Assembly (NCBI GenBank): GCA_964016885.1
Contig: OZ024744.1
Coordinates: 29,822,001-29,886,000, forward strand
From: Eledone cirrhosa
Taxonomy: Eukaryota
Direction: 5' to 3'
Length of the DNA stretch: 64,000 nucleotides
The position numbers were made by a program, and so were the translations under genes. The notes beneath the pieces are model-generated. The model made no database searches. It saw only the letters and a program-made list of their open reading frames with translations, and was not told the origin of the DNA. Shown here piece after piece: positions 1 through 64,000 of this stretch. Position 1 is the first letter of the stretch, and each line of letters starts with the position of its first letter.

Positions 1-2465
1 TATGTTTGACAACAACCAGAAGATGCTGTTTGGACAGCTTGAAGGGAAAGAAAGAGGCAACGACTTGATCCCTGATGCGGAACAAACTAAGACATTCTGG
101 AGAGGAATATGGGAGCAGGATGTTAAACATAATGACCAGGCAGTGTGGATTGAGACAGTACAAAAGGAGATTAGTAAACAGGCACACCAACAAACTGATT
201 TGAGTATCACAGTTGAAATTCTTAAGGGGTAGGCCAAAAAACTAACCAACTGGAAATCACCAGGCCCAGATGGTGTGCAGGGGTATTGGATTAAAAACAT
301 AACATCCCTCCACCCGAAACTGACAACCATGTTCAATGACTGCTTGATGTCAGGTGAGGTACCAGAGTGGTTGACATAAGGTACCACAGTTCTGGTAATG
401 AAAGACCGAATCAAGGGTAATGATGTTACCAACTATAGACCTATCACATGTCTGTCCGTAATGTGGAAACTGTTGACAAGCATTATGTCTGAGGAAATCT
501 ACCATCACCTCCACACAAACAACTTGTTACCGGACGAACAGAAAGGATGCCGAAAGAAGTCACATGGTACAAAGGACCAGTTACTTATTGATAAGATGGT
601 AATGAGGAATTGCAAGAGGAGACACACTGGTCTTGCCATGGGATGGATAGACTACAAAAAGGCATTTGACATGGTGCCTCATTCTTGGATCACCAAAAGC
701 CTGGAGATATTCAAGGTGGCAGATAACATCAGGCAGTTGTTGGGCAAAAGTATGAAGTCCTGGGAAACAGAGTTAACATCAACTGGAGAATCCTTGGGAA
801 GCGTGAAGATCAAGAGAGGTATCTTCCAGGGAGATAGTCTGTCCCCTCTGTTGTTTGTCCTTGCCCTGATCCCCTGACCATTATCCTGCGAAAAGTGAGA
901 GCAGGATACAAGTTGGGAAAGGGAGAGCTTACCATCAATCACCTCCTCTTCATGGACGATCTTAAGCTCTTCGGGAAGAGTGAGAAGGAGTTGGATGTGC
1001 TTGTTGACACTGTCCGTATTTTCAGCAATGATATATGTATGCAATTTGGTATTAGTAAGTGTGGAGTCATTGTGATGAGGAGGGGTAAGTTGAGCAGAAG
1101 TAACGGAATCCAGATACCAACAGGTGAGATGATAAAAGAAATTGACTCTGAAGAAGGATACAAGTATTTGGGCGCTCTGGAGGCTGATGACATCAAGAAC
1201 AAAAAAATGAAGGAATTGATAAGAACTGAATACCTTCGGAGAGTAAGGAGCGTATTAAAGTCACATCTGAACAGTAGGAATGCCATAAGTGCAGTAAATT
1301 CCCGAGCTGTGTCTATTATTAGGTACAGTGCGGGAATTCTGAGATGGAATGTTGCTGAACAAAAAGAAATGGATAGGAAGACTAGGAAGCTATTGACTAT
1401 CTACAATATGTTCCACAAGAGGAGTGATGTCGATAGACTCTACTTAAGGAGATCTGAAGGTGGAAGAGGTCTTATCAGCATAGAGGACTGTGTTCAGAGG
1501 GAGAAAAACAACCTACACAAATACGTGACTGATACTAAGGAGCCAATGCTCAGAACTGTACTGAAGGAGAGGACAATAGACCAGGGGATGTTCAGGGAAG
1601 AAATAACAAGGAGAAAGAGCAGCCTTTATGAAAAATCCCTTCATAGTACCTTCTTTGAGAAAACTGAATTCAGAGATCCGCAGACATAGAACTGGTTGAA
1701 AAGAGGAGACCTTAAAAAGGCTACAGAAGAAATGCTAATGGCTCCGCAAGAGCAGGCCCTCAAAACGAAGTGGTTGAAACACCATATTTACAAGGAGGAG
1801 GCTAGCCCACTGTGCAGGATCTGTGGAGAGAGAGAGAGGAGACTGTGGCTCACATTGTATCCGAGTGTAAACACCTAGCCCAGACTCACTATAAGGGCTG
1901 GAGACATGATGTGATGCGCAGGGTGAACCACTGGCACCTGTGCAAAAATAAACAATTTACCACATTCTGAGAAGTGGTATGAGCATAAGCCAGAGTCGGT
2001 GATAGAAAACGATCAGGTGAAGGTGCTGTTGGATTTTAGGATACGTACGGACAAGAAACTGGAACACAATAGACCTGACCTGGTGGTTTTGGACAAAGAA
2101 AAAAGATCGTGCCTAATTGTGGATGTGGCCTGCCCATTCGACACGAGAGTGCAAGAGAAGGAGAGAGAGAAAATTAACCGATACCAGGACTTAAAGTGGG
2201 AGGTAAAAAGGATTTGGAACTGTCATGAAGTCAAAGTGGTCCCGATTGTCATAGGCGCACTAGGTACTATCTCAAAAAGTTTCCAGGGATGGTTGAAGAA
2301 AATTGGCCCCGCCACGCTTTTTGGAACGCTTCAAAAGGCATGCTTGCTGGGAACAGCAAGAACAGTCCGATACGTCCTGAATATCTGAGGCTGCAGGTAG
2401 TGGCTTGATATTCATTTTAACAAACTTTCCAGTTAACTAACATCAATGACTGAGACTCAAAGAAC
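1..2465 (+). mobile_element. R4/Dong-clade non-LTR retrotransposon, copy A (runs off window start; stops and frameshifts)
   Basis: ORF pieces 2-232, 398-877, 895-1689, 1696-1878 and 1999-2388 carry RT motifs ([23 protein letters not shown]), a CRICG zinc knuckle start and an RLE motif (PDLVV..D..IVDVACP). It is collinear with the 57356-60748 ORF. A short 3' UTR is followed by (TAA)n at 2466-2480. Confidence 0.93.
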
Positions 2466-2486
2466 AATAATAATAATAATGATGAT

Positions 2487-6545: not shown

Positions 6546-6621
6546 CTTCTTTATACTTGACCATTATCTTTTGTTTGGCACAAAACTATCTAAATGGCTA
6601 CAAAAGAAATTCCCAAATACG

Positions 6622-44600: not shown

Positions 44601-45060
44601 CCACACAGTCCCAGCGTGCATCTAAGATCCCGTTCCAGTCGCCCACTGACACTAAAGAGCGGGACGTTCCAAGAAAGGTCTCCAGACGCCGGAAGAAATC
44701 AGGCCGCCCTGCTCCTGTCGGGGCATAGACGGCCACTAGCCTGAAAGCTTGCCCGTCTCCGCTGGTCACGTCCAGCACCACCAACTTACCCTCTGGGTCC
44801 AGGAAGATGGCCCGTATGGCAAGATCCAAACCTCTCCGAAAAAGCACAGCAACTCCTCCCCCCGATCCAGGACGGCTGGGAGATGCGTACACATCGTAGC
44901 CGCTGAAGATCGGTGCGAAGGCCCGTGCTTCGGAGTTTCTGGTCTCGCTGATGGCCACTACATCTATTTTTAGTGACCTGAGGTCGTTGAGCAGGTGACC
45001 CTGCTTCCATGACAACCCCAAGCCACGCGCATTTATGCTGCCTATTCTGAGTGAGGTCAT
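41627..45060 (-). pseudogene. Tx1 ORF2: APE endonuclease, reverse transcriptase, C-terminal zinc knuckle
   Basis: APE motifs SINARG, ISET, AVYAP, VGDWN, YLDR and TDH. RT motifs NYRPITLL, DQSKAFD, RQGCPLS and YADD. Knuckle CPRC..ETVLHALVQC. In-frame stops near 44300 and 44267; frameshifts near 43890 (14-bp duplication) and 42680. Confidence 0.9.
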
Positions 45061-45428
45061 GTTTAAAATAGAGTGGAAAAGATGGGAAAGACCACTTACC
45101 GTACTTTTCGTAGAGGAGGGATGGTTTTTCCATCCCTTTTCACTCGATCGTCTGGGGAAGGGACCGTTGAATCGTCCCTTCGGCTGGTCGTCGGCTCTTC
45201 TATGAGTATGTCCGAATATACTCTTCGGTTGAGAGTCCCTCCTAGGTAGGTCTCTGAAATCACCAACTGCGTTGAGGAATTTCGTTTTAATGTTTGTGTA
45301 TTGTTTCTGTGCTATTTTTAGCAGTCTTATATTAGTTGGCGTTTTGATTGGTGCTGGTATTATGTAGTCGTGTTGTGAAATGTCTGTGTGTTCAATTATG
45401 TAAGTCATTAGTTTCTTGTTGTGTGTAT

Positions 45429-47210
45429 TTATTGCCGTGCATTTGTTTTTCTGGGGGTGGGGTGTGGTTCTGCTATTTTTTGTCGTTGTTGCTGGGTGTG
45501 TGTGTTTTGTTGTTGTGTTTGCGATGTTGGTGCTTGTGGTGGTGGTGTTGAAGGTGTTGTTGTTGTTGGCGGTGGGGTTGTCACCGGTGGTGATGGTGGT
45601 GCTAGTGTGGGTGGTGATGGTGTTGGTGGTGTTGCTGCTGTGAGTCTCTTTGCAGTAGCCTTTACCCTTTTTTCATTTCTTTCCTCCCTTTTCGAAGGCG
45701 ACGATGCGCTGCTTCTGCGTTTGTGCCTTCTTACGACCTTTTGCCATCCCTCTCCCACCTCACACTCCATGTCTGATTCTGTGAGGTCGGGGAGGGGTAC
45801 CAGCTCCACTCTTTCACTTGTTGTTGTTGGTGATGTTTGCACTGGAGTCTCTGTTGCAGCTGCATTTGGTATTGCTGTTGTTGTTGTTAATACTTCCACT
45901 GTTGCTGCTGTTTTTGATTTCCGTGGCGTGGGTATGGGTGCCACGGACCTATCGGTCCTGGTTGCCGCATGACCTGTTTCTGGTAGCCGTGGAGCCGGTT
46001 TCGGAAGGAGGGGATTTTCTCTTTTCTCAGGGTCTTCTCGTTGCAGAAGGCCCTGAGGTGAGTCTTCAATCCACAGCGAAAGCATTTCGGGCGTTTGCCC
46101 TCAACACTTATGGACAGTTGAGTGCCGTTATCGAAGTCTATCACATCCGGGATAGCTTCTATGCACTCCTGGTTGGTTTGGATTAACATCTCAATGGAGG
46201 TGCCGACCCAATCTTCTCTTACTTTTTTCTGTACTTGCAGTACAGTTGTTTTGTCCTCGATTCCGACGAGGACAGACGCGGCCAGCCAAGAAGGGGCCAT
46301 CCCGGGGGGGGGGGGGGGCGACGACGACAACGACGTGGGTCAGTTTGACCCTCACAATTTTTTGCCCGCAGTAGGAGGGCACCAACACCATTTCCTCGCT
46401 CCTTAGGGTCACTAAGGATTGAGCCTTTGCCTCCTGGGGTGTGGCAAAAAGTACGTCTACAGTGGTATATTTCTTGCCTCGGGTGATGTGCGTTTTCCGC
46501 TGCCACACAGACCCCAAGGCTTTTTGTATTTGAGCCTCTGTGGCTCTTTCAACCCTACGGGATTTTGTACTTACTGTACGGTACGTGACCGTACAGTGCT
46601 GTTGGGTTTCGAAAAAATTTTCCGCTGCCTTGCAGATTGCTCGGTGTCCAGTCTTTGTCACCATCTTCTTCGCTTCCTCTAATTCCTCATTTGTTATGAG
46701 GATGGTTTCCAGGTTCTTTGCGATACCTGCAAACGAGATTGGTTTTTCTTTGCTGTTGTTGTTGTTGTTGTCGTCAGAGCTGCTGTTACTTTTGTTGTTG
46801 CTGCAGGTACTATGACTACTGCCGCCACTGCTGTTGCTGTGGTTGTTGTTGCTGCTGCTGCTGTTGTTACTGCTAATGCTGTTGTTGTTTATGCTGCTGC
46901 TGATGCTGTTGCGGCTGCTACTGTTGTTTTCCTTGTCACTTTTGCTGCTGTTATTACGGCTGCTACTGCTATTATTCCTGACGTCAGACGAATGAAATGG
47001 GTTTTCGTATTTCCCGCACACCTTTTTCGTCGTTGTTGTCGTCGTCGTGGAGAAATCTTGCTCGCTTTGCACGTGATTTTTCTTTTCTGGCGTCGCTTGC
47101 GAAAGAGAAGGGAGGGAGAGAGACAATCTTCTCTCTGCTGTAGTGACGATTGAGGAAGAAGAAGACGGAATGAGTGGGAGTGACGTATGAACATTCATTT
47201 TCGTAGCCAT
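45429..47210 (-). pseudogene. Tx1 ORF1 (gag-like, CCHC knuckle), frameshifted
   Basis: Ser/Asn-rich N-terminus with SFAGIA, knuckle CFRCGLKTHLRAFC and a GWQKV motif. The frame breaks at the G run 46303-46318 and near 46020. Confidence 0.8.
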
Positions 47211-47456
47211 GTTGTTTTTTTTTGTTTAAAATCAATATTGGGCACAAAACCCCAATAAGCGGTTATTTGACCCCGAAGGGCCAAATAATGGGCAGAAAGA
47301 CCCCTCTCACGAGGAGGAGGGTGTTTTTGTCTACAAGTTGGTTAAAGTTTTAAACAATTTACAATTGTTATAGCGGTCAAAATTTACAATACCTTACAGA
47401 ACCGAGCCTCCGTCAACCATAGCATTCAATAATAATAATAATAATAATAATAATAA

Positions 47457-50400
47457 GGGAAGAAGACACACATAGTGGATAGAAGGTCGAGAAATCGCTC
47501 CCGTAAGTTTTGATTTTTTAACATATTTAAATCAATTGTGAAATAACAATTCTTAGTACAAATGTTGCATAAAACATCCAGCTTGAGTTCCAAAAAATTC
47601 GGATCCACAATATATTGTTATATCGCTCAAATATTCAATTTTGTATTATACATTTTATATTCAAACAGAAAATGGTTATAAATGGAAGGAAACCCCCTCT
47701 GTCTACACTATATAGAACAGCCAAATAACAGCAATTTCACCAACATCAGAAACTAGATACACCACCTACCCCATCACTCCTCTGTGTACACTAAACACAA
47801 CAGCCCGATAACGGCAATTTCACGACCACCACCACCACCAATCTCAACATAATAATAATAATTACTATTACTGTTGCCTCAAGTTTTAGTTTTAACAAAA
47901 TGTTTAATTCCAATAAATGTCAACACATACACGCGACTAACGATAATTTCACTAAAGATAATTTCACCACCAATACCACCACCACTACCACGATGAAAAC
48001 TCTGGTCAAGTCGACTCAAATTTCTACTCCAACTTCAACACCATCACTACAGTAATACGACCACATCACCACCACCGCTGCCTCACTATCGCTACCGCCG
48101 CTATTCTCTCCCACTACCTCCTGCTAGTTGCTGCTAGCACAGCACCGCCATCGCCGCCGCTGCCTCAATATCACTACCGCCGCTATTCTCTCCCGCTAGC
48201 CCCTGCTACATTGTAGAATTCTCACTGAAAGAGGAAAACATCGAAATATATAAATAGACTGAATTGATGACCCGATCAAAATAAAAATAAAAAAAAAAAA
48301 ACAATAATCAAAATCAAGTTTTAGTTTTAACAAAATGTTTAATTCCAATATTATGGGTAAATGTCAACGCATATACGCGACTAACGATAATTTCACCAAA
48401 GATAATTTCACCAAAGATAATTTCACCACCAATACCACCACCACTACCACGACGAAAACTCTGGTGACGTCGACTCAAATTTCTACTCCAACTTCAACAC
48501 CATCACTACAGTAATACAATCACATCACCACCACCGCTGCCTCACTATCGCTACCGCCGCTATTCTCTCCCAGTACCTCCTGCTAGTTGCTGCCTCAATA
48601 TCACTACCGCCGCTATTCTCTCCCGCTACATTGTAGAATTCTCACTAAAAGAGGAAAACATCGAAATATATAAATAGACTGAATTGATGACCCGATCAAA
48701 AAAAAAAACAAAAACAATAATCAAAACCAAGTTTTAGTTTTAACAAAGTAATACGACCACATCACCACCACCGCTTCCTCACTATCGCTACCGCCGCTAT
48801 TCACTCCCACTACCTCCTGCTAGTTGCTGCTAGCACAGCACCGCCGCCGCTGCCTCAGTATCAATACCGCCGCTATTCTCTCCCGCTATCCGCTGCTACA
48901 TTGTAGAATTCCCACTAAAAGAGGAAAACATCAAAATATATAAATAGACTGAATTGATGACCCGGTCAAAATAAAAAAAAACAACAACAAAAATCAAAAT
49001 CAAAGCAGCACCGCAACAACGAAAAACGTAAAGGAAATAAAAATGAAGAGAAAAACAAACGGACGGACAGAAAAGGGAAGGGAAAAACTAAGTCAGACAT
49101 TCAAACACTACATTACAATGAAACTTATGTTTATTCATTTTGGGGGTTTTTTTCTGCCTGTTTGTTTGTTTGTTTGTTTGAGTTCGTCTACAGCGTGATA
49201 ATGCCACACAAAAGTCACGTGAAGTGACGAAACCACCGGAGAAAAGTAATTCACCGGTGGTTATGTAACCATATATTCGCCAATCCTCGATAAGAGTGTT
49301 TAAATGTCGAACCTAAACAGTTCGAATAACGGTGAAATGGAGACTAGAATGTCATGTGACAGACTCTCACCCAACAGGTGCTCCCTGGCTCAGCAGCAGG
49401 GACCTGGCTGTCAACCAAATACTGCTGGTGTCGGAGGAAGAAGAAGAAGGAAATGGACCAGAACCAACTGGACGAAAAAATTGAATAGAACTGTTATGCA
49501 ATGTTACCTGAAGAGTAACCCCAAGGAGAAAGGCTATAGGAAAAGGATGCATAACATCTGGAACGAGATAGGTCCATTTAAATTAGATTAACAAAAACTG
49601 GCCGGGCAGGCTCGGGTAATAAGAACTAATGGTTGGATAAGCGAGCTGGAACTGGAGGAACTGGGCAGAGAGATGAGCTTGGAGATGGAGGGTGGAGTAT
49701 GCCAGGCAAACGAGCCAGTGGGAAATGAAGGTGAAGAGGTCGAGAGAGCGGAGGAACTACCCGAAACAGACAATGATCTGAATGCTGAGATAAATAATAC
49801 CTGGAACAGAGGTACGGCCACTGAGGAGATGAATGCTGACGGGCTAGGACAAGATTTGGTAGATATCCTAAATTTAGTGGTAGATGAATTGAACAATGAT
49901 AGTGGGAGACCTATGAACCTAAGATTTGTAGACAGGAAAAAGTTAAAAGAAACAACAGCTAAGGTAAACAAAGTCATCCCATACCTTGAGGCGAGGAGCC
50001 TTCACCAGTGCAACAATATCCTCAAAGCAACAGCAAATACGGTGAGGAAACTACTTGGTATAAAAGCGAGAGGAAACAACAGACAAGAAAGAGCAGAGCC
50101 TTGGTGGAAGAAACGACTGAATGGTCAAATCAGGGAAATGAGAAATGACATTGGAAAGCTTGAGTCCCTACTGAATGGGACACTAAAAAACATAGACACT
50201 AAAAATAGACTGGAAATAAAGTACAAAACTAGGAGGAAAAAGCTAAATATTATCATAGAAGAACTGAAGCAACGCATTGTAGCAAAAAGTGCAAAAATCA
50301 GGCGATACGAGAACAGAGTCAGCCAGTATAGACAGAACCGCATGTTCGACAACAACCAGAAGATGCTGTTTGAACAGCTTGAAGGGAAAGAAAGAGGCAA

Positions 50401-52800
50401 CGACTTGATTCCTGAGGCGGAACGAACTAAAACATTCTGGAGAGGAATATGGGAGCAGGGTGTTAAACATAATGACCAGGCAGTGTGGATTGAGACAGTA
50501 CAGAAGGAGATCAGTGAACAGGCACGCCAACAAACTGATTTGAGTATCACAGTTGAAACTCTTAAGGGGCAGGCCAAAAAACTAACCAACTGGAAATCAC
50601 CTGGCCCAGATGTTGTGCAGGGGTATTGGATTAAAAACATAACATCCCTCCACCCGAAACTGACAACCATGTTCAATGACTGCTTGATGTCAGGTGAGGT
50701 ACCAGAGTGGTTGACAAAAGGTACCACAGATCTGATAATGAAAGACCGAATCAAGGGTCCAACTATAAACCTATCACATGTATGTCCGTAATGTGGAAAC
50801 TGTTGACAAGCATTATATCTGAGGAAATCTACCATCACCTCCACACAAACAACTTGTTACCGGACGAACAGAAAGGATGCCGAAAGAAGTCACGTGGTAC
50901 AAAGGACCAGTTACTTATTGATAAGATGGTAATGAGGAATTGCAAGAGGAGACACACTGGTCTTGCCATGGGATGGATAGACTACAAAAAGGCATTTGAC
51001 ATGGTGCCTCATTCTTGGATCACCAAAAGCCTGGAGATCTTCAAGGTGGCAGATAACATCAGGCAGTTGTTGGGCAAAAGTATGAAGTCCTGGGAAACAG
51101 AGTTAACATCAACTGGAGAATCCTTGGGAAGCGTGAAGATCAAGAGAGGTATCTTCCAGGGAGATAGTCTGTCCCCTCTGTTGTTTGTCCTTGCCCTGAT
51201 ACCCCTGACCAGTGTACTGCGAAAAGTGAGAGCAGGATACAGGTTGGGAAAGGGAGGGCTTACCATCAATCACCTCCTCTTCATGGACGATCTTAAGCTC
51301 TTCGGGAAGAGTGAGAAGGAGTTGGATGTGCTTGTTGACACTGTCCGTATTTTCAGCAATGATATATGCAATTTGGTATTAGTAAGTGTGGAGTCATTGT
51401 GATGAGGAGGGGTAAGTTGAGCAGAAGTAACGGAATCCAGATACCAACAGGTGAGATGATAAAAGAAATTGACTCTGAAGAAGGATACAAGTATTTGGGC
51501 GTTCTGGAGGCTGATGACATCAAGAACAAAAAAATGAAGGAATTGATAAGAACTGAATACCTTCGGAGAGTAAGGAGCGTATTAAAGTCACATCTGAACA
51601 GTAGGAATACCATAAGTGCAGTAAATTCCCGAGCTGTGTCTATTATTAGGTACAGTGCGGGAATTCTGAGATGGAATGTTGCTGAACAAAAAGAAATTGA
51701 TAGGAAGACTAGGAAGCTATTGACTATCTACAACATGTTCCACAAGAGGAGTGATGTCGATAGACTCTACTTAATGAGATCTGAAGGTGGAAGAGGTCTT
51801 ATCAGCATAGAGGACTGTCTTAAGATGGAGAAAAACAACCTACACAAATACGTGACTGATAGTAAGGAGCCAATGCTCAGAGCTGTACTGAAGGAGGGGA
51901 CAGTAGGCCAGGGGATGTCCAAGGAGGAAATAACATCAAGGAGAAAGAGCAGCCTTCAGGAAAAATCCCTTCATAGTACCTTCTTTGAGAAAAATGAATT
52001 TAGAGATCCACAGACATGGAACTGGTTGAAAAGAGGAGACCTTAAAAAGGCTACAGAAGGAATGTTAATGGCTGCGCAGGAGCAAGCCCTCAAAACGAAG
52101 TGGTTGAAACACCACATTTACAAGGAGGAGGCTAGCCCACTGTGCAGGATCTATGGAGAGAGAGAGGAGACTGTGGCTCACATTGTATCCGAGTGTAAAG
52201 ACCTAGCCCAGACTCACTATAAGGGCTGGAGACATGATGTGATGGGCAGGGTGATCCACTGGCACCTATGCAAAGTAAACAATTTACCACATTCTGAGAA
52301 GTGGTATGAGCATAAGCCAGAGGCGGTGATAGAAAATGATCAGGTGAAGGTGCTGTGGGATTTTAGGATACAGACGGACAAGAAACTGGAACACAATAGA
52401 CCTGACCTGGTGGTTTTGGACAAAGAAAAAAGATCGTGCCTGATTGTGGATGTGGCCTGCCCATTCGACACGAGAGTGCAAGAGAAGGAGAGGGAGAAAA
52501 TTAACCGATACCAGGACTTAAAGTGGGAGGTAAAAAGGATTTGGAACTGCCATGAAGTCAAAGTGATCCCGATTGTCATAGGCGCACTAGGGACTATCTC
52601 AAAAAGTTTCCAGGGATGGTTAAAGAAAATTGGCCCCTTCACGCTTTTTGGAACGCTGGGAACAGCAAGAACAGCAAGAACCCTCCGAACAGCAAGAACC
52701 CTCCGATACGTCCTGAATATCTGAGGCTGCAGGTAGTGGCTTGATATTCATTTCAACAAACTTTCCAGTTAACTAACATCAATGACTGAGACTCAAAAAA
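47457..52800 (+). mobile_element. R4/Dong-clade retrotransposon copy B, full length, ORF disrupted
   Basis: Starts GGGAAGAAGAC directly after (TAA)n, with a ~1.9-kb 5' UTR. The ORF runs 49337-52724 with a stop at 49589 and frameshifts near 50760 and 51365. (TAA)n follows to 52858. Confidence 0.93.
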
Positions 52801-52858: not shown

Positions 52859-55800
52859 CTCTGGAACAGAGATACGGCCACTGAGGAGATGAATGCTGAC
52901 GGACTAGGACAAGATTCGGTTGACATCCTAAATTTAGTGGTAGATGAATTGAACAATGATAGTGGGAGACCTATGAACCTAAGATTTGTAGACAGGAAAA
53001 AGTTAAAAGAAACAACAGCTAAGGTAAACAAAGTCATCCCATACGTTGAGGCGAGGAACCTTCACCGGTGTAACAATATCCTCAAAGCAACAGCAAATAC
53101 GGTGAGGAAACTACTTGGTATAAAAGCGAGAGGAAACAACAGACAAGAAAGAGCAGAGCCGTGGTGGAAGAAGCGACTGAGTGGGCAAATCGGGGAAATG
53201 AGAAATGACATAGGAAAGCTTGAGTCACTAATGAATGGGACACTAAAAAACATAGGCACTAAAAATAGACTGGAAATAAAATACAAAACTAGGAGTAAAA
53301 AGCTAAATATTATCATAGAGGAATTGAAGCAACGCATTGTAGCAAAGAGTGCAAAAATCAGACGATACGAGAACAGAGAAAGTCAGTATAAACAGAACCG
53401 CATGTTCGACAACAACCAGAAGATGCTGTTTGGACAGCTTGAGGGGAAAGAAAGAGGCAACGACTTGATCCCTGGGGCGGAACAAACTAAAACATTCTGG
53501 AGAGGAATATGGGAGCAGGATGTTAGACACAATGCCCAGGCAGGGTGGATTGAGACAGTAAAGAGGGAGATCGGTGAGCAGGCACAGCAACAAACTGATT
53601 TGAGTATCACAGTTGAAACTCTTAAGGGGCAGGCCAAAAAACTAACCAACTGGAAATCACCTGGCCCAGATGGTGTGCAGGGGTATTGGATTAAAAACAT
53701 AACATCCCTCCACCTGAAGCTGACGGCCATGTTCAATGACTGCTTGGTGTCGGGTGAGGTGCCAGAGTGGTTGACAAAAGGTACCACAGTTCTGATAATG
53801 AAAGACCGAATCAAGGGTAATGATGTTACCAACTATAGACCTATCACATATCTGTCCGTAATGTGGAAACTGTTGACGAGCATTGTGTCTGAGGAAATCT
53901 ACCATCACCTCCACACAAACAACTTGTTACCGGACGAACAGAAAGGATGCCGAAAGAAGTCACGTGGTACAAAGGACCAGTTGCTTATTGATAAGATGGT
54001 AATGGGGAATTGCAGGAGGAGACACACTGATCTTGCCATGGGATGGATAGACTACAGAAAGGCATTTGACATGGTGCCTCATTCCTGGATCACCAAAAGC
54101 CTGGAGATCTTCAGGGTGGCAGATAACATCAGACAGTTGCTAGGCAGGAGTATGGGGTCCTGGGAGACAGAGTTGACATCAACTGGAGTATCCTTGGGAA
54201 GCGTGAAGATCAAGAGAGGTATCTTCCAGGGAGATAGCCTGTCCCCTCTGTTGTTTGTCCTTGCCCTGATGCCCTTGACCATTATGCTGCGAAAAGTGAG
54301 AGCAGGATACAAGTTGGGAAGGGGAGAGCTTACCATCAATCACCTCCTCTTCATGGACGATCTTAAGCTCTTCGGGAAAAGTGAGAAGGAGTTGGATGTG
54401 CTTGTTGACACTGTCCGTATTTTCATCAGTGATATATGTATGCAGTTTGGTATTGGTAAATGTGGAGTCATTGTGATGAAGAGGGGTAGGTTGAGCAGAA
54501 GTAACGGGATCCATATACCAACAGGTGAGATGATAAAGGAAATTGACTCTGAGGAAGGATACAAGTATTTGGGCGTTCTGGAGGCTGATGGCATAAAGAA
54601 CAAAAAAATGAAGGAATTGTTAAGAACTGAATACATTCGGAGAGTAAGGAGCGTATTGAAGTCACATCTGAACAGCAGAAATGCCATAAGCGCAGTAAAT
54701 TCCCGAGCTGTGTCTATTATCAGGTACAGTGCGGGAATTCTGAGATGGAATGTTGCTGAACAAAAAGAAATGGATAGGAAGACTAGGAAGCTATTGACTA
54801 TCTACAACATGTTCCACAAGAGGAGTGATGTCGATAGACTCTACCTAAGGAGATCTGAGGGTGGAAGAGGTCTTATCAGCATAGAGGACTGTGTTCAGAT
54901 GGAGAAAAACAACCTATACAAATACGTGACCTATAGTAAGGAGCCAATGCTCAGAACTGTACTGAAGGAGGGGACAGTAGGCCAGGGGATGTCCAAGGAG
55001 GAAATAACATCAAGGAGGAAGAGCAGCCTTAAGGGAAAATCCCTTCATAGTACCTTCTTTGAGACAACTGAATTTAGAGATCCACAGACATGGAACTGGT
55101 TGAGAAGAGGAGACCTCAAAAAGGCTACAGAAGGAATGCTAATGGCTGCGCAGGAGCAGGCCCTCAAAACGAAGTGGTTGAAGCACCATATCTACAAGGA
55201 GGAGGCTAGCCCACTGTGCAGGATCTGTGGAGAGAGAGAGGAGACTGTGGCTCACATTGTGTCCGAGTGTAAACACCTAGCCCAGACCCACTATAAGGGC
55301 TGGAGACACGATGTGATGGGCAGGGTGATCCACTGGCACCTGTGCAAAGTAAACAATTTATCACATTCTGAGAAATGGTATGAGCATAGGCCAGAGGCGG
55401 TGATGGAGAACAATCAGGTGAAGGTGCTGTGGGATTTTAGGATACAGACGGACAAAAAACTGGAACACAATAGACCTGACCTGGTGGTTGTGGACAAAGA
55501 AAAAAGATCGTGCCTGATTGTGGATGTGGCCTGCCCGTTCGACACGAGAGTGCAAGAGAAGGAGAGGGAGAAAATTAACCGATACCAGGACCTAAAGTGG
55601 GAGGTGAAAAGGATTTGGAACTGCCATGAAGTCAAAGTGATCCCGATTGTCATAGGCGCACTGGGGACTATCTCCAAAAGTTTCCAGGGATGGTTAAAGA
55701 AAATCGGCCCCTTCACGCTTTTTGGAACGCTTCAAAAGGCATGCTTGCTTGGAACAGCAAGAACCCTCCGATACGTCCTGAATATCTGAGGCTGCAGGTA

Positions 55801-55864
55801 GTGGCTTGATATTCAATCCAACGGACTTTCCAGTTAACCAACATCAATGACTGAGATTCAAGGA
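52859..55864 (+). mobile_element. R4/Dong-clade retrotransposon copy C, 5'-truncated
   Basis: Begins inside the ORF directly after the TAA tract. Its 3' UTR is the same as that of copy D. Tail runs to 55942. Confidence 0.95.
52889..55789 (+). CDS. N-terminally truncated RT-RLE ORF of copy C (966 aa open; lacks the first 164 aa of copy D)
   Basis: Uninterrupted frame nearly identical to the C-terminal 966 aa of copy D. Confidence 0.8.
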   Translation: MNADGLGQDSVDILNLVVDELNNDSGRPMNLRFVDRKKLKETTAKVNKVIPYVEARNLHRCNNILKATANTVRKLLGIKARGNNRQERAEPWWKKRLSGQIGEMRNDIGKLESLMNGTLKNIGTKNRLEIKYKTRSKKLNIIIEELKQRIVAKSAKIRRYENRESQYKQNRMFDNNQKMLFGQLEGKERGNDLIPGAEQTKTFWRGIWEQDVRHNAQAGWIETVKREIGEQAQQQTDLSITVETLKGQAKKLTNWKSPGPDGVQGYWIKNITSLHLKLTAMFNDCLVSGEVPEWLTKGTTVLIMKDRIKGNDVTNYRPITYLSVMWKLLTSIVSEEIYHHLHTNNLLPDEQKGCRKKSRGTKDQLLIDKMVMGNCRRRHTDLAMGWIDYRKAFDMVPHSWITKSLEIFRVADNIRQLLGRSMGSWETELTSTGVSLGSVKIKRGIFQGDSLSPLLFVLALMPLTIMLRKVRAGYKLGRGELTINHLLFMDDLKLFGKSEKELDVLVDTVRIFISDICMQFGIGKCGVIVMKRGRLSRSNGIHIPTGEMIKEIDSEEGYKYLGVLEADGIKNKKMKELLRTEYIRRVRSVLKSHLNSRNAISAVNSRAVSIIRYSAGILRWNVAEQKEMDRKTRKLLTIYNMFHKRSDVDRLYLRRSEGGRGLISIEDCVQMEKNNLYKYVTYSKEPMLRTVLKEGTVGQGMSKEEITSRRKSSLKGKSLHSTFFETTEFRDPQTWNWLRRGDLKKATEGMLMAAQEQALKTKWLKHHIYKEEASPLCRICGEREETVAHIVSECKHLAQTHYKGWRHDVMGRVIHWHLCKVNNLSHSEKWYEHRPEAVMENNQVKVLWDFRIQTDKKLEHNRPDLVVVDKEKRSCLIVDVACPFDTRVQEKEREKINRYQDLKWEVKRIWNCHEVKVIPIVIGALGTISKSFQGWLKKIGPFTLFGTLQKACLLGTARTLRYVLNI

Positions 55865-55875
55865 ATAACAACAAC

Positions 55876-55942
<67 letters not shown>

Positions 55943-58900
55943 GGGAAGAAGACGCACGAGGTGACGGAGGTCATGAAATCGCTCCCGTAAGTTTTGAATT
56001 TTTAACATATTTAAATCATTTGTGAAATAACAACTCTTAGTACAAATGCTACGTAAAGCACCCGGCTTGAGCCCCAAAAAATTCGGACCCAAAATATATT
56101 GTTATAAGGCTCAAATATTCAAATGTTCAACTTTGTATTGTACACTGTATATCCAAAAAAAAAAAATGGCTATAAATGGAAGAAGAAGAACCCCCCCCCC
56201 CCTCCTCTCCTCTGGCTACACTATATAGGACAGCTAAACTCACCAACACCAGAAACTAGATACACCGCCCACCCCATCATCTGTGTACACTAAACACAAC
56301 AGCATTTTCACCTTCACCGCCACCGCTCACTACGGCCATCATTGCCACCGCTGTCCCATCACCGCCGCCACCACCCCCTGACTCCTTCACTGCTGCTGCC
56401 ACCGCTACAGCACCATCACTACAGTAATACGGCTCAAATATTCAAATATTCAACTTTGTATTGTACACTGTATATCCAAAAAAAAAAAAAAAAAAAAAAA
56501 TAAATAAATAAAATAAAATGGCTATAAATGGAAGAAGAAGAACCCCCCCCCCCCCCTCCTCTCCTCTGGCTACACTATATAGGACAGCGAAACTCACCAA
56601 CACCAGAAACTAGATACACCACCCACCCCATCATCTGTGTACACTAAACACAACAGCATTTTCACCTTCACCGCCACCGCTCACTACGGCCATCATTGCC
56701 ACCGCTGTCCCATCACCGCCGCCACCACCCCCTGACTCCTTCACTGCTGCTGCCACCGCTACAGCACCATCACTACAGTAATACGGTCGCATCACCGCCA
56801 CCGCTGCCTCGGTATCGACATCACCGCCACCACTGTCTCAGTATCGCCAACGCCGCTAGTCTCTGCTGGCTACCACTTCCACATTATAGAATTCCTACTA
56901 CTAACAAAGAGGAAGGCATCAAAATATATAGATAGACTCAAAAGAAAAAAGAAAAAACAAACAACAAAAGCAGCACAGCAACAACAGTAAAAAACGAGAA
57001 AAACAGAGAAAAACAAAAACAAAAAAAGAAACCCCAAAAACGTAAAGAAAATAAGAATGAAGAGAGAAGCAGGCGGACGGACAGAGAAGAGGGGGGGAAA
57101 AGTAAAACTTAAAAAACAAAAACTAAGTCGGACATTCGAATACTACATTACAATGAAACTTATGCTTATTCATTTTTGGGGCCCTTTCTGCCCGTGTGTT
57201 TGTTTGTTTATGTGTGTCCGTATACAGCGTGGTGATAATGCCACACAAGGGCCAAGTGGGATGGCGGATCCACAGATGGCTATGTAAACATACATTCGCC
57301 AATCCTCGATAAGAGTGTTTAAATATCGAACATAAACAGTTCGAATAACGGTGAAATGGAGACTAGAACGTCATGTGACAGACTCTCACCCAACAGGTGC
57401 CCCCTGGCTCAGCAGCAGGAACCTGACTGTCAACGAAATACTGCTGATGTTGGAGGAAGAAGAAGAAGGAAAGGGGCCAGAACCAACTGGACGAAAGAAT
57501 TGAATAGAACTGTTATGCAATGCTACCTGAAAAGTAACCCCAAGGAGAGGGGCTACAGGAGACGGATGCATAACATCTGGAACGAGATTGGTTTATTTAA
57601 ATTAGATGAACAAAAATTGGCCGGGCAGGCTCGGGTAATAAGAACTAATGGGTGGATAAGCGAGCTGGAACTGGAGGAACTGAGCAGAGAGAATGGCTTG
57701 GAGATGGCGGGTGTAGTATGCCAGACAAGCGAGCCGGCGGGAAATGAAGGTGAGGAGGTCCTGAGAGCGAAGGAACCACCCGAAGCAGACAATGATCTGA
57801 ATACTGAGATAAATAATACCTGGAACAGAGATACGGCCACTGAGGAGATGAATGCTGACGGGCTAGGACAAGATTCGGTTGACATCCTAAATTTAGTGGT
57901 AGATGAGTTGAACAATGATAGTGGGAGACCTATGAACCTAAGATTTGTAGACAGGAAAAAGTTAAAAGAAACAACAGCTAAGGTAAACAAAGTCATCCCA
58001 TACCTTGAGGCGAGGAGTCTTCACCAGTGCAACAATATCCTCAAAGCAACAGCAAATACGGTGAGGAAACTACTTGGTATAAAAGCGAGAGGAAACAACA
58101 GACAAGAAAGAGCAGAGCCGTGGTGGAAGAAGCGACTGAGTGGGCAAATCGGGGAAATGAGAAATGACATAGGAAAGCTTGAGTCACTACTGAATGGGAC
58201 ACTAAAAAACATAGGCACTAAAAATAGACTGGAAATAAAATACAAAACTAGGAGTAAAAAGCTAAATATTATCATAGAGGAATTGAAGCAACGCATTGTA
58301 GCAAAGAGTGCCAAAATCAGGCGATACGAGAACAGAGTCAGTCAGTATAAACAGAACCGCATGTTCGACAACAACCAGAAGATGCTGTTTGGACAGCTTG
58401 AGGGGAAAGAAAGAGGCACCGACTTGATCCCTGGGGCGGAACAAGCTAAAACATTCTGGAGAGGAATATGGGAGCAGGATGTTAGACACAATGCCCAGGC
58501 AGGGTGGATTGAGACAGTACAGAGGGAGATCGGTGAGCAGGCACAGCAACAGACTGATTTGAGTATCACAGTTGAAACTCTTAAGGGGCAAGCCAAAAAA
58601 CTAACCAACTGGAAATCACCAGGCCCAGATGGTGTGCAGGGGTATTGGATTAAACATTTAACATCCCTCCACCCGAAGCTGACGGCCATGTTCAATGACT
58701 GCTTGGTGTCGGGTGAGGTGCCAGAGTGGTTGACAAAAGGTACCACAGTTCTGATAATGAAAGACCAAATCAAGGGTAATGATGTCACCAACTATAGACC
58801 TATCACATGTCTGCCCGTAATGTGGAAACTGTTGACGAGCATTGTGTCTGAGGAAATCTACCATCACCTCCACACAAACAACTTGTTGCCGGACGAACAG

Positions 58901-60823
58901 AAAGGATGCCGAAAGAAGTCACGTGGTACAAAGGACCAGTTGCTTATTGATAAGATGGTAATGGGGAATTGCAGGAGGAGACACACTGATCTTGCCATGG
59001 GATGGATAGACTACAGAAAGGCATTTGACATGGTGCCTCATTCCTGGATCACCAAAAGCCTGGAGATCTTCAGGGTGGCAGATAACATCAGACAGTTGCT
59101 GGGCAGGAGTATGGGGTCCTGGGAGACAGAGTTGACATCAACTGGAGTATCCTTGGGAAGCGTGAAGATCAAGAGAGGTATCTTCCAGGGAGATAGCCTG
59201 TCCCCTCTGTTGTTTGTCCTTGCCCTGATGCCCTTGACCATTATGCTGCGAAAAGTGAGAGCAGGATACAAGTTGGGAAGGGGAGAGCTTACCATCAATC
59301 ACCTCCTCTTCATGGACGACCTTAAGCTCTTCGGGAAAAGTGAGAAGGAGTTGGATGTGCTTGTTGACACTGTCCGTATTTTCAGCAGTGATATATGTAT
59401 GCAGTTTGGTATTGGTAAATGTGGAGTCATTGTGATGAGGAGGGGTAGGTTGAGCAGAAGTAACGGGATCCAGATACCAACAGGTGAGATGATAAAGGAA
59501 ATTGACTCTGAGGAAGGATACAAGTATTTGGGCGTTCTGGAGGCTGATGGCATAAAGAACAAAAAAATGAAGGAATTGTTAAGAACTGAATACATTCGGA
59601 GAGTAAGGAGCGTATTGAAGTCACATCTGAACAGCAGAAATGCCATAAGCGCAGTAAATTCCCGAGCTGTGTCTATTATTAGGTACAGTGCGGGAATTCT
59701 GAGATGGAATGTTGCTGAACAAAAAGAAATGGATAGGAAGACTAGGAAGCTATTGACTATCTACAACATGTTCCACAAGAGGAGTGATGTCGATAGACTC
59801 TACCTAAGGAGATCTGAGGGTGGAAGAGGTCTTATCAGCATAGAGGACTGTGTTCAGATGGAGAAAAACAACCTATACAAATACGTGACCTATAGTAAGG
59901 AGCCAATGCTCAGAGCTGTACTGAAGGAGGGGACAGTAGGCCAGAGGATACCCAAGGAGGAAATAACATCAAGGAGGAAGAGCAGCCTTAAGGGAAAATC
60001 CCTTCATAGTACCTTCTTTGAGAAAACTGAATTTAGAGATCCACAGACATGGAACTGGTTGAGAAGAGGAGACCTCAAAAAGGCTACAGAAGGAATGCTA
60101 ATGGCTGCGCAGGAGCAGGCCCTCAAAACGAAGTGGTTGAAGCACCATATCTACAAGGAGGAGGCTAGCCCACTGTGCAGGATCTGTGGAGAGAGGGAGG
60201 AGACTGTGGCTCACATTGTGTCCGAGTGTAAACACCTAGCCCAGACCCACTATAAGGGCTGGAGACACGATGTGATGGGCAGGGTGATCCACTGGCACCT
60301 GTGCAAAGTAAACAATCTACCACATTCTGAGAAATGGTATGAGCATAGGCCAGAGGCGGTGATGGAGAACAATCAGGTGAAGGTGCTGTGGGATTTTAGG
60401 ATACAGACGGACAAAAAACTGGAACACAATAGACCTGACCTGGTGGTTGTGGACAAAGAAAAAAGATCGTGCCTGATTGTGGATGTGGCCTGCCCGTTCG
60501 ACACGAGAGTGCAAGAGAAGGAGAGGGAGAAAATTAACCGATACCAGGACCTAAAGTGGGAGGTGAAAAGGATTTGGAACTGCCATGAAGTCAAAGTGAT
60601 CCCGATTGTCATAGGCGCACTGGGGACTATCTCCAAAGGTTTCCAGGGATGGTTAAAGAAAATCGGCCCCTTCACGCTTTTTGGAACGCTTCAAAAGGCA
60701 TGCTTGCTTGGAACGGCAAGAACCCTCCGATACGTCCTGAATATCTGAGGCTGCAGGTAGTGGCTTGATATTCAATCCAACGGACTTTCCAGTTAACCAA
60801 CATCAATGACTGAGATTCAAGGA
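55943..60823 (+). mobile_element. R4/Dong-clade retrotransposon copy D, full length and apparently intact
   Basis: Starts GGGAAGAAGAC after (TAA)n. 1.4-kb 5' UTR, single ORF, ~75-bp 3' UTR, then (CAA)/(TAA)n and (GAA)n. Confidence 0.96.
57356..60748 (+). CDS. Non-LTR retrotransposon protein, 1130 aa: N-terminal Myb-like region, RT, CCHC knuckle, restriction-like endonuclease
   Basis: Motifs WTKELNR..W, KSPGPDG, NYRPI, DYRKAFD, QGDSLSP, FMDD, GGRGL, CRICGEREETVAHIVSEC, RHD and RPDLVVVD..IVDVACP..EK. Confidence 0.95.
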   Translation: METRTSCDRLSPNRCPLAQQQEPDCQRNTADVGGRRRRKGARTNWTKELNRTVMQCYLKSNPKERGYRRRMHNIWNEIGLFKLDEQKLAGQARVIRTNGWISELELEELSRENGLEMAGVVCQTSEPAGNEGEEVLRAKEPPEADNDLNTEINNTWNRDTATEEMNADGLGQDSVDILNLVVDELNNDSGRPMNLRFVDRKKLKETTAKVNKVIPYLEARSLHQCNNILKATANTVRKLLGIKARGNNRQERAEPWWKKRLSGQIGEMRNDIGKLESLLNGTLKNIGTKNRLEIKYKTRSKKLNIIIEELKQRIVAKSAKIRRYENRVSQYKQNRMFDNNQKMLFGQLEGKERGTDLIPGAEQAKTFWRGIWEQDVRHNAQAGWIETVQREIGEQAQQQTDLSITVETLKGQAKKLTNWKSPGPDGVQGYWIKHLTSLHPKLTAMFNDCLVSGEVPEWLTKGTTVLIMKDQIKGNDVTNYRPITCLPVMWKLLTSIVSEEIYHHLHTNNLLPDEQKGCRKKSRGTKDQLLIDKMVMGNCRRRHTDLAMGWIDYRKAFDMVPHSWITKSLEIFRVADNIRQLLGRSMGSWETELTSTGVSLGSVKIKRGIFQGDSLSPLLFVLALMPLTIMLRKVRAGYKLGRGELTINHLLFMDDLKLFGKSEKELDVLVDTVRIFSSDICMQFGIGKCGVIVMRRGRLSRSNGIQIPTGEMIKEIDSEEGYKYLGVLEADGIKNKKMKELLRTEYIRRVRSVLKSHLNSRNAISAVNSRAVSIIRYSAGILRWNVAEQKEMDRKTRKLLTIYNMFHKRSDVDRLYLRRSEGGRGLISIEDCVQMEKNNLYKYVTYSKEPMLRAVLKEGTVGQRIPKEEITSRRKSSLKGKSLHSTFFEKTEFRDPQTWNWLRRGDLKKATEGMLMAAQEQALKTKWLKHHIYKEEASPLCRICGEREETVAHIVSECKHLAQTHYKGWRHDVMGRVIHWHLCKVNNLPHSEKWYEHRPEAVMENNQVKVLWDFRIQTDKKLEHNRPDLVVVDKEKRSCLIVDVACPFDTRVQEKEREKINRYQDLKWEVKRIWNCHEVKVIPIVIGALGTISKGFQGWLKKIGPFTLFGTLQKACLLGTARTLRYVLNI

Positions 60824-60834
60824 ATAACAACAAC

Positions 60835-60875
<41 letters not shown>

Positions 60876-60936
60876 GAAGAAGAAGAAGAAGAAGAAGAAG
60901 AAAATTGGTTAATAATAATAATAATAAGAAGAAGAA

Positions 60937-63900
60937 GGGAAGAAGACTCACGTGATGGTAGAAGGTCATGAGATCGCTCCTGTAAGTTTTTGATTTTTAA
61001 CATATTTAAATCAATTGTGAAATAATAATTCTTACTACAAATGATGCATAAATCACCGAATCAAGTCTCATAAAAATTCGGATCCATAATATATTGTTAT
61101 ATCGCTCAAATATTCAATTTTGTATTATATATTTTATATTCAAAAAAGAAAATGGTTATAAATGGAAGAAAACCCCCTTTGTCTACACTACATAGAACAG
61201 CCAAATAACAGCAATTTCACCAACACCAGAAACTAGATACACCACCTACCCCATCACCCCGCTGTGTACACTAAATATAACAGTCAGATAACGGCCATCA
61301 CCACCACCACCACCAATCCCAGCATAATAATAATAATTACTATTATTATTGTCTCAAGTTTTAACAATATTTAATTCCAATATTAAGGAAAATGTGTCAA
61401 CACATATATTAAACATACGCGACACAAACGCATAGATACTACAGATCAAACAAAACTAGTCTGTTCAACAAAACTCAGTAACGACAACGCCACCGCCGCC
61501 ATCACTCCATCCATCATTGCTACCACTATCCCATCACCGCCGCCACCACTCCTTCATTGCTACCACCACTATTCCCCTGTTAACTTAAGAAAGGGGAAGA
61601 TGGCGGTATCACTAGACAAGGGAGAGGCTAGCAAAAGATATAAATAGATTGACTTAGTGACCCGGCCACCGGCCAAACGTCAACAACTATGGCACTGCTG
61701 GCTCCCCCTTCCCCACCAACAATATAAAAAAGCTCCAGCACCACCACCGCCATAGCCAACAACAATAACAGGCAACTTCAGCAAAAAGTATATTATATTA
61801 TTGTAATGCTCTGGGTAATTGCTGGCCTTGTGCCTGGAGTGGAGACAATTATTAATAATTTCATTCTTAAGCCACGCAATGCTCACATTAAGGAACCACT
61901 CATGATAATAACAATTTAAAAAAACAACAAAAAAGAAAACCCCGTGACGAAGAAATACCGGGATGGCGGCCGGCGGAGAATAGCCGTGTCTCTAGGGGAG
62001 AACGACCCCTCTAGTCTTGGTTGACACTCGTTCTAGAAGTGGTAACACGAAATGATTACCCCTTGGCGGATAAGGATAAAACGCGACAAAATAAAGTAAA
62101 TGTCTAATGATAAAATCTCATACCGGATCGGCCGTCACCCGGGTAAAAAAGGGCCGCGTCCCTCAGAGAGAAACCAGACTGGGGTCGAAAAATCAGCTAA
62201 TGGTTCAAACCTTCCCATCACTTCGGAGCTGGAGACCTCCCATAACCGGAATACTCCTACTGTTGGCCCTCCATGCTCACCACCAAGAAATCCAAAGAAA
62301 AAGAAAGAAAAATGGTCAAGGGAAGATAATAAAGAAGTCCTTGAGGCTTTCTACACTGCCATGTACTACCCATCAAATACATCGAATACAGAACAGACAT
62401 ATATCAACTGGAAAAAGAAACATCCCGGATACAGAGGCTATATTGACAGTAACAAACTAGCCAATATACGAAGAAATATTGTAAAAAAAAGTTACTAACT
62501 GATATAGAAATTGATCAGATCAAGCTATTAGCACAAAGTCAGCGAAGGGAAAATGAAACATGTGTCAGTGAAAACGAGGTAAACTGTAACACTTCGAATC
62601 CCAGGGTTGGGGCGGCATCACTGGCAACATAACAAATTAAAGAAAGGATCGAAAAAGTGGAGGAAGTGCATGCTCAGGATGAAACTCCAAATGAAAATAA
62701 TGAGATCGTAAATGATAAAGAAATGAATGAGAATGAACTTGCCAACTTGAAGGATGAAATTATGATCGAATGGATGAAAGTGAAAGAATCTGACATGGGG
62801 CAACGAGACACCCTCCCTAAGATCCAGAACTCCAAACAGAACCAAAAGATAATACACAAGACTAACATGATTCTCAAAAACATTATCATCACAAACAAAC
62901 TAAACATTACTGATTTAAATCATCTCTATTATGCATCGGCTAAAGTCACCACTCACTTATGTGGAGTGAAGATGAAAAAACAAAGGAATTCCCACAAGAA
63001 ATCTAATTGGCAAGAGAACATCAATCGCCAAATAAACCTTCTCCGATCTGACATAGGCATTTTAACAAACTATAAAGTAGGTGAACATGTTAAACAAACT
63101 AAACTTAGAAAATTGAAAAGAAAGTACAGTATAAAATCAACACGTGACATAGACATGCTGATAGAAATAATCAAGCAAAAAGTGTCGGCCAAAGCTGCTC
63201 GTATAAGGCGCTTTGAAAAACGATCTAGATTCTATAAGGACAATAATATGTTCAAAGACAACCAAAGAAACTTCTACAGAAAAATTGGTAAGTCAACAAT
63301 AACTGCTAAATCAATACCACCCAAGGAGGAAGTGCAAGAATTCTGGGAAAAGATCTGGGCCGAAGAAAAAGTTCATAACATACATGCCCCATGGATAGAC
63401 AGACAAATGAAAGATACAGCTCACCTTGAAGAACAAATATGGGAAAATATAACAGTTGAACAGTTCTAAGAAAAACCACCAAATGGAAATCCCCAGGAAA
63501 AGACAAAATATAAAATTTTTGGATAAATGCCTTCACAGAGTCTCACGAGCTGTTAGCCCAACTTTACAATGAAATAGTTAAGGAGCCAGAAAAGATACCA
63601 TCATGGCTAGTTAACGGCATTACATTCCTGCTTCCGAAGAATGATGAGACAAATAATCCCAAAAATTACAGACCGATAACTTGCTTGACCACAATGTATA
63701 AAATTTTAACATCAGTCCTAACTGAATATACATATGACCACCTGATAACAAATGACCTATTTCCTTTTGAGCAGAAAGGGTGTAAACGAGGCTCATATGG
63801 CTGTAAGGATCAGCTTCTGGTTAACAAAATGATACTGGAAGATTGTCATAATAGACACAAAAATCTATCAATTGCTTGGATAGATTATAAAAAAGCATTC

Positions 63901-64000
63901 GATAGTTTGCCACACAGTTGGATTGAAAAATGTTTAGATATTTTCAAAATATCCCCCGTTGTCAGGAGGTTTTTGTCATTCAGTATGAAGACATGCATGG
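60937..64000 (+). mobile_element. Divergent R4/Dong-clade retrotransposon copy E (disrupted ORF; runs off window end)
   Basis: Same GGGAAGAAGAC leader. ORF pieces 62100-62498, 62657-63469 and ~63470-64000 carry [34 protein letters not shown] and [11 protein letters not shown]-rich and not visibly alignable to copies B and D at the DNA level. Confidence 0.9.

Follow-up and report, generated by a model that had tools for sequence, protein, structure and literature searches.

The A>G and T>C differences between copies of a very active retrotransposon family in Eledone cirrhosa were gained one at a time over the whole history of the family. We consider it moderately probable that the excess of A>G comes from errors made by reverse transcriptase (RT) in each cycle and filtered by selection. 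An earlier note on the same DNA had proposed that an RNA-edited transcript was retrotransposed and founded a subfamily of its own, a claim contradicted by the intermediate copies described below.

The window, the whole stretch of 64,000 nucleotides that was analysed (contig OZ024744.1, 29,822,001 to 29,886,000), contains copies A to E (Table 1). On sequence grounds, we class the element with the Dong-like non-LTR retrotransposons that target (TAA)n. It has one ORF with an RT, then a CCHC and then a C-terminal restriction-like endonuclease motif, and the best solved-structure matches to the product of the copy D ORF are R2 proteins (E = 5e-30). The presence of (TAA)n at 76 of 87 truncated 5′ ends and 164 of 172 3′ ends points to insertion into (TAA)n repeats. 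Dong elements, which belong to the R4 clade and include Bombyx Dong, DongAg and snail DongBg, have the same single-ORF arrangement and (TAA)n at both ends, and it is by architecture and target site that we liken the Eledone element to them. The Eledone family differs in having at least 4,222 genomic copies and a finely resolved ladder. The available text of PMC3812793 gives TAA as the Dong target.

The lineage of copy D is supported as still mobile, as had been claimed. Its own ORF is intact, and among 84 copies that span the whole ORF and match D at ≥99.5% identity, 80 have an open frame. Copy D begins near 55943 and not at the border given earlier, and copy C has no 5′ part. Copy C is 98.6% identical to D and belongs to an earlier rung of the ladder. 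No blastn match was found between copy E and copy D.

Table 1. Element copies and features in the window (positions in nucleotides of the window unless marked aa).
Feature	Position	Strand	Remarks
Copy D, full-length, very young	55943..60824	+	L403 matches 55909-57400 at 98.5%; 30 top loci 99.7-100% identical
Copy D 5′ UTR, ~1.4 kb		+	internal duplication 56101-56432 / 56424-56786
Copy D single open ORF, 1,131 aa	57353..60748	+	RT aa 477-728; CCHC knuckle aa 942-959
Restriction-like endonuclease motif RPD..D in copy D ORF	aa 1027-1045	+	
A>G cluster in copy D singled out by the earlier note	59103..59120	+	sites 59106, 59107, 59114, 59115
(AAT)n tail/target repeat 3′ of copy D	60823..60927	+	continues into (AAG)n
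Copy C, 5′-truncated, open frame	52859..55865	+	sits in (AAT)n tail of copy B
Copy B, older rung	47457..52800	+	frameshifts near 50760 and 51365
Copy A, 3′ part, still older rung than B	2..2486	+	cut by window edge
Copy E, distant relative	62633..64000	+	47% aa at RT start; too distant for DNA rooting

A recount over 540 columns of copy B (50821-51360) and D confirmed 29 differences, of which sixteen are A>G, six G>A, four T>C, and three others. The recodings DYKKAF>DYRKAF, IFK>IFR, KSMKS>RSMGS, RNCK>GNCR, DD>DG, and QKEISE>QREIGE are all present in the sequence, and the distant copy E retains DYKKAF, IFK, and SMK. Three G thought to be private to copy B are found in about 94-97% of B-type copies. 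Across 2,447 four-way columns, eighty-eight separate A and B from C and D: fifty A>G, sixteen T>C, eight G>A, three C>T, and eleven transversions, with A>G 2.1-fold over T>C per base (p = 0.008). The statement that C and D differ mostly by A>G thus stands for the four copies but is weaker at the subfamily level, where 3,513 columns gave 73 A>G and 30 T>C (1.44-fold per base, p = 0.10). The majority shrinks because the sense strand is A-rich.

The tree of 167 copies is a ladder, with terminal branches falling from about 0.04 to 0.001. Older in-genome groups were used for rooting; they carry the A state, so A is ancestral and G derived, in line with the original polarity. Rooting by protein outgroups (120 homologues, ≤66% identity) was rejected as weak, with twenty-two of thirty-nine non-synonymous A>G sites favouring the B state and sixteen the D state. 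With sixteen non-monotone sites left out, the nine steps of the trunk hold 237 one-way changes (106 A>G, 45 T>C, 34 G>A, 12 C>T, and 40 transversions). A>G makes up 35-55% of the fixed changes in each well-filled step, also before A and B arose. Its share is 45 of 108 up to the B split and 61 of 129 from there on (p = 0.43), and the bias is therefore not peculiar to C and D, contrary to what had been supposed. Trunk A>G and T>C stand at 56/261 versus 36/242 among synonymous changes (p = 0.065) and at 50/805 versus 9/378 among non-synonymous ones (p = 0.004). GC3 climbs from 0.478 to 0.548 along the ladder.

A single hyper-edited transcript that founded the C/D subfamily would explain why A>G is the commonest of the differences shared by C and D, but we regard the chance of this as vanishingly small. 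The copies form a staircase of intermediates, including 255 in which only 59115 of the second pair of the cluster (59114-59115) has changed, and the A>G share is alike before and after the B split. At 59106-59107, the first 100 listed copies, scored by eye, read AA in thirty-four, AG in forty-seven, GG in nineteen, and GA in none. The cluster was thus assembled base by base in separate steps, and clustering of A>G within steps, which the earlier note had described, is not significant (p 0.07-0.22). The nested order argues against the intermediates being later recombinants of two parents. No hyper-edited copy was found among 299 copies or 446 aligned pieces, samples drawn by exact pattern or best match that select against heavily edited copies, nor did the ladder or these samples show a copy or a single step that had gained a dense one-way cluster of A>G. 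A genome-wide search with a forced-G motif, which covers one site only, gave one match, an old copy in which A>G makes up 18 of 99 changes.

ADAR-type hypermutation of retroviral or retroelement RNA that becomes fixed in DNA, as in avian retroviruses, is marked by sense A>G that avoids a 5′ G and favours a 3′ G, a pattern that the Eledone element shows in full only in its young private changes. Those cases are dense bursts in single copies, whereas insertions of the Eledone element carry scattered changes, about 0.4 A>G each, and the samples searched contained no burst. In the available text on APOBEC-edited retrotransposons (PMC2873906), a change at the mobile stage also becomes fixed in the genome; there it takes the form of clustered G>A in single copies, in contrast to inheritance through an active lineage without such clusters here.

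To characterize new changes, we combined the D clade (31 copies) with a second young clade of 91 copies, leaving out 4 mosaics. This fresh set has 105 distinct variants: 37 A>G, 24 T>C, 12 G>A, 10 C>T, and 22 transversions. Per base, A>G and T>C are equal (p = 0.90), so the asymmetry expected of the C/D branch under editing is partly missing. The A>G/T>C ratio is about 1.0 in the fresh set, 1.19 for all private changes (p = 0.012), and 1.41 on the trunk (p = 0.054), nowhere far above parity. Fresh A>G show no selection (28 non-synonymous, 8 synonymous, and 1 UTR; opportunity 864:273). Because the youngest copies are rich in A>G and T>C (29 of 40 private changes) while old copies carry the host GC-to-AT spectrum, we place the changes at the retrotransposition stage, as the earlier note did. 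The fresh rate is ~2-5e-4 per base per copy. Assembly error was ruled out by the strongly skewed, clade-specific spectrum and by nested shared variants.

Wobble errors of the element's own RT are the likely origin of this slow, family-wide drift. A full-length copy would pick up roughly one substitution in each round of retrotransposition, in most cases A>G or T>C. Sense A>G could arise from dC opposite template A or from dG opposite dT in the second strand, and sense T>C from dG opposite template U, with the errors passed on through successive master copies. Under purifying selection, conservative purine changes (K>R, N>S, S>G) may survive more readily than T>C, which, together with the A-rich sense strand, would make A>G appear dominant. 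Block recombination between rungs would add mosaics.

In vitro error rates in the available text of PMC11331410 are 1.2e-4 plus 1.0e-4 for R2-RT (Fasciolopsis buski) and 2.2e-4 plus 5.7e-4 for human L1-RT, with dT most substituted and dC most misincorporated. We read this text as making dC-for-dT, which is sense A>G, the leading error of both enzymes, and a known RT spectrum therefore reproduces part of the bias. Transitions dominate and rates are of the order of 1e-4 per base, as here; the Eledone spectrum differs in coming from genomic copies in vivo and in having T>C as frequent per base as A>G. Retroviral RT second-strand errors are led by dA>dG, but their lack of context bias counts against RT error as the source (PMC6009661). 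So do the HAG enrichment, ADAR-like neighbour order, recurrence, and doublets of A>G set out below, as well as the D clade, where A>G is about 5-fold above the sister young clade. T>C is not significantly higher there, and the A>G:T>C ratio does not differ significantly between the two clades (p = 0.11). RT error as the main source allows ADAR a minor share of A>G.

T>C on template RNA is beyond the reach of ADAR. It is possible, though we doubt it, that sporadic editing supplies most sense A>G and RT the T>C, with element RNAs that carry few edits (about 0.2-0.4 per insertion) being reverse transcribed and the edits fixed in the active lineage over hundreds of cycles. Private sense A>G exceeds its mirror change only before G (+1 G 234/104,298 versus 60/51,457, p = 2e-6), and its HAG enrichment is 2.4-fold (p = 3e-8), strand-specific, and present in all four age classes. 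For 124 young A>G events, the values are T 1.35, A 1.23, C 0.88, and G 0.70 at the 5′ neighbour and G 1.61, C 1.17, and A = T 0.58 at the 3′ neighbour, the ADAR rank order on both sides (PMC3113232). The trunk is strongly depleted of 5′ G (15/106 versus 31%), with synonymous A>G at 51/158 after A or T and 2/56 after G (p = 4e-6). A>G hits fall unevenly on sites, with an overdispersion of 1.23 (p = 3e-7) against 1.07 for T>C (p = 0.09) and, from low counts, 1.22 for T>A; private A>G recurs at 58738, 59856, 57659, 58618, 59459, 58860, and 58644 and forms three AA>GG doublets where 0.19 are expected. The genome has an ADAR2-like gene, and repeat editing is widespread in squid according to the available part of PMC9068888.

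Several results count against ADAR as the main source. Fresh A>G is not above T>C, and the editing explanation therefore needs an RT unlike R2 and L1 RT. The +1 effect exceeds the -1 effect, the opposite of ADAR, and TAG, the best ADAR triplet, accounts for only 6 of the 124 events. Young private changes show both 5′ G depletion and 3′ G enrichment, as the earlier note had predicted, but the trunk has only the 5′ part (+1 G in 33/106 versus 28%), confounded with codon preference and CpG avoidance, and older private changes lack the 5′ part. Neighbour effects need no ADAR, since T>C shows its own +1 bias (p = 0.002). Trunk A>G after the B split lies slightly more often in paired regions (p = 0.008), but private A>G sites show no more pairing than sites without a hit (all p > 0.15). 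No long duplex was found within the element, the longest exact inverted match being 11 bp. L1 RNA is reported as unedited by ADAR1 in cells in the available text of PMC5224506. Editing of the cDNA strand was ruled out, as the mirror ADAR context is where T>C occurs least. On the editing reading, which we hold to be the less likely, low-level ADAR would be a standing mutagen of the active lineage, with single edits of germline element RNA entering the DNA in each cycle and making most of the roughly 100 fixed A>G, including the RT recodings. In thirty loci of an APE-type element, private A>G and T>C number 35-36 and 37 without strand or HAG excess, though these copies are older and host-dominated and form a weak control.

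AT-to-GC drift could also come from ordinary host mutations, sifted either by selection on codon use or by gene conversion between copies with a GC bias. Trunk A>G and T>C do exceed their reverses (151 versus 46, p = 5e-8), the codon-level pattern is uneven, and block mosaics show exchange between copies. Four-gamete conflicts increase with distance for all change types, as expected of recombination; A>G pairs have slightly more of them, in raw counts that do not control for frequency. We nevertheless find this origin quite improbable, as host changes go from GC to AT, the bias is already present in the unselected private changes of the youngest copies, and the trunk shows no preference for AT-to-GC transversions (seven A>C and seven T>G versus six C>A and four G>T).

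An excess of A>G between subfamilies is, taken alone, no evidence of editing. Our literature search, with most subscription papers outside its scope, found no account of a non-LTR master lineage drifting from A to G. With the recurrent sites named above, it can be tested whether RNA editing by the host leaves heritable marks in an element that still moves, as opposed to scarring dead copies alone. The family is a rare in vivo read-out of one retrotransposition cycle, about 2-5e-4 substitutions per base with an AT-to-GC bias that runs opposite to host drift. By rough arithmetic, the synonymous change of the trunk divided by the fresh rate would correspond to ~500-700 successive cycles.

Four copies of one retrotransposon family (A to D) and a more distant relative, E, share the window with other repeats. 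Copy D is intact and very young. The 1,131-aa product of its single open ORF combines an RT domain with a CCHC knuckle and carries an endonuclease motif, RPD..D; the closest solved relatives of this product are R2 proteins. Directly upstream of 76 of the 87 young 5′-truncated copies lies (AAT)n, and 164 of 172 3′ ends continue into it. Dong elements are known to target this repeat (PMC3812793). Matches to a degenerate RT motif number 4,222 across the genome (3.0 Gb), where a gene for an ADAR2-like deaminase is also present. The 5′ UTR of D (55943–57352) contains a tandem duplication of ~330–360 bp common to young full-length copies, and its turnover is much faster than that of the ORF. The segment at 60910–61382, directly after the D tail and before E, is 87 per cent similar to the 5′ end of B (47430–47915). 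It may be an independent fragment, or the 5′ region may be shared.

Repeats located in the window
Feature	Position	Description
Copy A	2–2486	same family as B, C, D
Copy B	about 47457–52800	same family as A, C, D
Copy C	52859–55865	same family as A, B, D
Copy D	about 55943–60824	same family as A, B, C
E		distant relative of the A–D family
Satellite	13264–28304	15 kb, 46-bp unit, ~331 copies, 91% matches, strongly C-skewed
Tandem array	39070–40571	47/97-bp period, ~31 units
APE-endonuclease + RT element	41627–47225	(−), opposite strand to the D family
Pieces of APE-type element	2748–5423, 5417–6547, 29254–30179	

An earlier count of twenty-nine differences between B and D (sixteen A>G, six G>A, and seven others) proved exact. 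The A>G majority reported between A, B and C, D also held for the 88 sites concerned (A>G 50, T>C 16; 2.1-fold per base, P = 0.008), but the excess was smaller at the subfamily level (32 B-type and 31 D-type rows, 3,513 columns; A>G 73, T>C 30; 1.44-fold, P = 0.10).

The tree of 167 copies (58400–60350) is a ladder whose terminal branches shorten toward D, with B and A as older rungs. Sites were polarized from the bases that actual genomic copies carry, sorted into ten age groups; this identified A as ancestral and G as derived, as the earlier note had argued. With sixteen non-monotone sites excluded, 237 one-way changes remained (A>G 106, T>C 45, G>A 34, C>T 12, transversions 40). Step by step, A>G contributed 17/37, 14/31, 14/40, 18/33, 17/32, 17/41, 4/8, 4/9, and 1/6, with no significant difference before and after the B split (P = 0.43), and GC3 rose along the ladder from 0.478 to 0.548. 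Intermediate copies form a staircase with block mosaics. The proposal that one ADAR-edited RNA founded the C/D subfamily fails on these stepwise intermediates and on the unchanged A>G share, and we give a hyper-edited founder almost no credence. The cluster in D that the earlier note had put forward as its example (59106, 59107, 59114, 59115) was assembled stepwise through intermediates that are still present. In 255 copies 59115 is changed without 59114, and by-eye counts at 59106–7 in the first 100 copies listed gave AA 34, AG 47, GG 19, and GA 0, the AA rows including at least one old copy with a recurrent change (L132); L203 is an exception to the order of changes. Contrary to the clustering described earlier, A>G neighbors within ladder steps were not significantly clustered. 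No hyper-edited copy was found in 299 copies or in 446 pieces from 381 loci, samples biased against heavily edited copies such that rare ones could escape, and a genome-wide motif forcing two changes had one match, an old, ordinary copy.

In the D clade (39 copies matched its motif, of which 31 were analyzed), 29 of 40 private changes are A>G or T>C. Old copies show the GC-to-AT spectrum of the host, as does the unrelated APE-type family (many genomic copies, ~96–97 per cent alike), which served only as a control. The bias therefore arises during retrotransposition. Conversion or selection acting on host mutations is an improbable source of the excess. The feature is real: the family as a whole has drifted gradually, through changes that arise while the element is mobile. 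The literature covered by our search, which misses most subscription papers, yielded no account of a drift like this along any non-LTR lineage.

Fresh variants were pooled from the D clade and another very young clade (91 of 93 matching copies analyzed, 54 without a private change), with four mosaics removed. The 105 distinct variants (A>G 37, T>C 24, G>A 12, C>T 10, transversions 22) show equal A>G and T>C per base (P = 0.90), and private rates in 121 young copies are 5.4 × 10−4 for A>G and 4.9 × 10−4 for T>C (P = 0.69). Fresh A>G is unselected, and on the trunk (changes fixed along the active lineage) the A>G excess is clearer at non-synonymous sites (A>G 50/805 vs T>C 9/378) than at synonymous ones (56/261 vs 36/242, P = 0.065); selection thus inflates the trunk excess.

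RT misincorporation plus selection would yield a gradual A>G drift, and we think it the probable explanation, if with modest confidence. T>C on the template RNA is chemically an impossible product of ADAR. In one in vitro study, R2-RT and L1-RT most often substituted dT and misincorporated dC, with error rates of 1.2 × 10−4 and 2.2 × 10−4 per base, respectively (PMC11331410); another study puts dA>dG foremost among retroviral RT second-strand errors, without context bias (PMC6009661). Both the dC-for-dT and the dA>dG errors read as sense A>G, the strand orientation of the former being our own interpretation.

Sporadic ADAR edits could instead be the main source, a possibility we hold to be real though rather unlikely, and one whose odds were raised by a strand-by-context test. 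Across 394 copies, private sense A>G exceeded its mirror 1.19-fold overall, 1.92-fold before G (P = 2 × 10−6), and 2.42-fold at HAG, an A with a non-G 5′ neighbor and a 3′ G (P = 3 × 10−8; direction consistent in 4/4 age classes); the ratio at GAH was 0.91. At −1 the neighbors of 124 young A>G events ranked T>A>C>G (P = 0.04), and at +1 they ranked G>C>A=T (P < 1 × 10−4). This ranking agrees with human ADAR preferences (PMC3113232). Because several contexts were examined, caution is needed with the weaker P-values among these context results. Identical A>G sites were hit in different rungs, to which shared descent may contribute, and three doublets were seen against 0.19 expected. Trunk A>G is depleted of 5′ G (15/106 vs 31 per cent; at synonymous sites, 2/56 codons after G vs 51/158 after A or T), but this pattern also follows codon classes and the creation of CpG. 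The ADAR-like context for which the earlier note proposed a test is present in young private changes, with G depleted at −1 and enriched at +1, but the trunk lacks the +1 enrichment. Also against ADAR, the +1 effect is larger than the −1 effect, T>C has a +1 bias of its own that is just as clear, older private changes have no 5′ bias, and private A>G sites do not lie in more paired regions; trunk A>G sites after the B split lie in slightly more paired ones (P = 0.008).

The private A>G rate of the D clade is ~5 times that of its sister young clade, which may reflect altered fidelity, a larger number of cycles, or heavier editing; neither the RT-error nor the ADAR reading as yet accounts for it. 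The D clade (L012) and the second young clade (L318) differ at seven sites, five of them non-synonymous; one of these five, R482Q, lies where the RT domain begins. Block mosaics between rungs were seen in D (59241–59286) and in L056, L095, L457, L187, and L109. At 59241–59286, four linked sites switch and later revert jointly, and recombination therefore reaches the active lineage.
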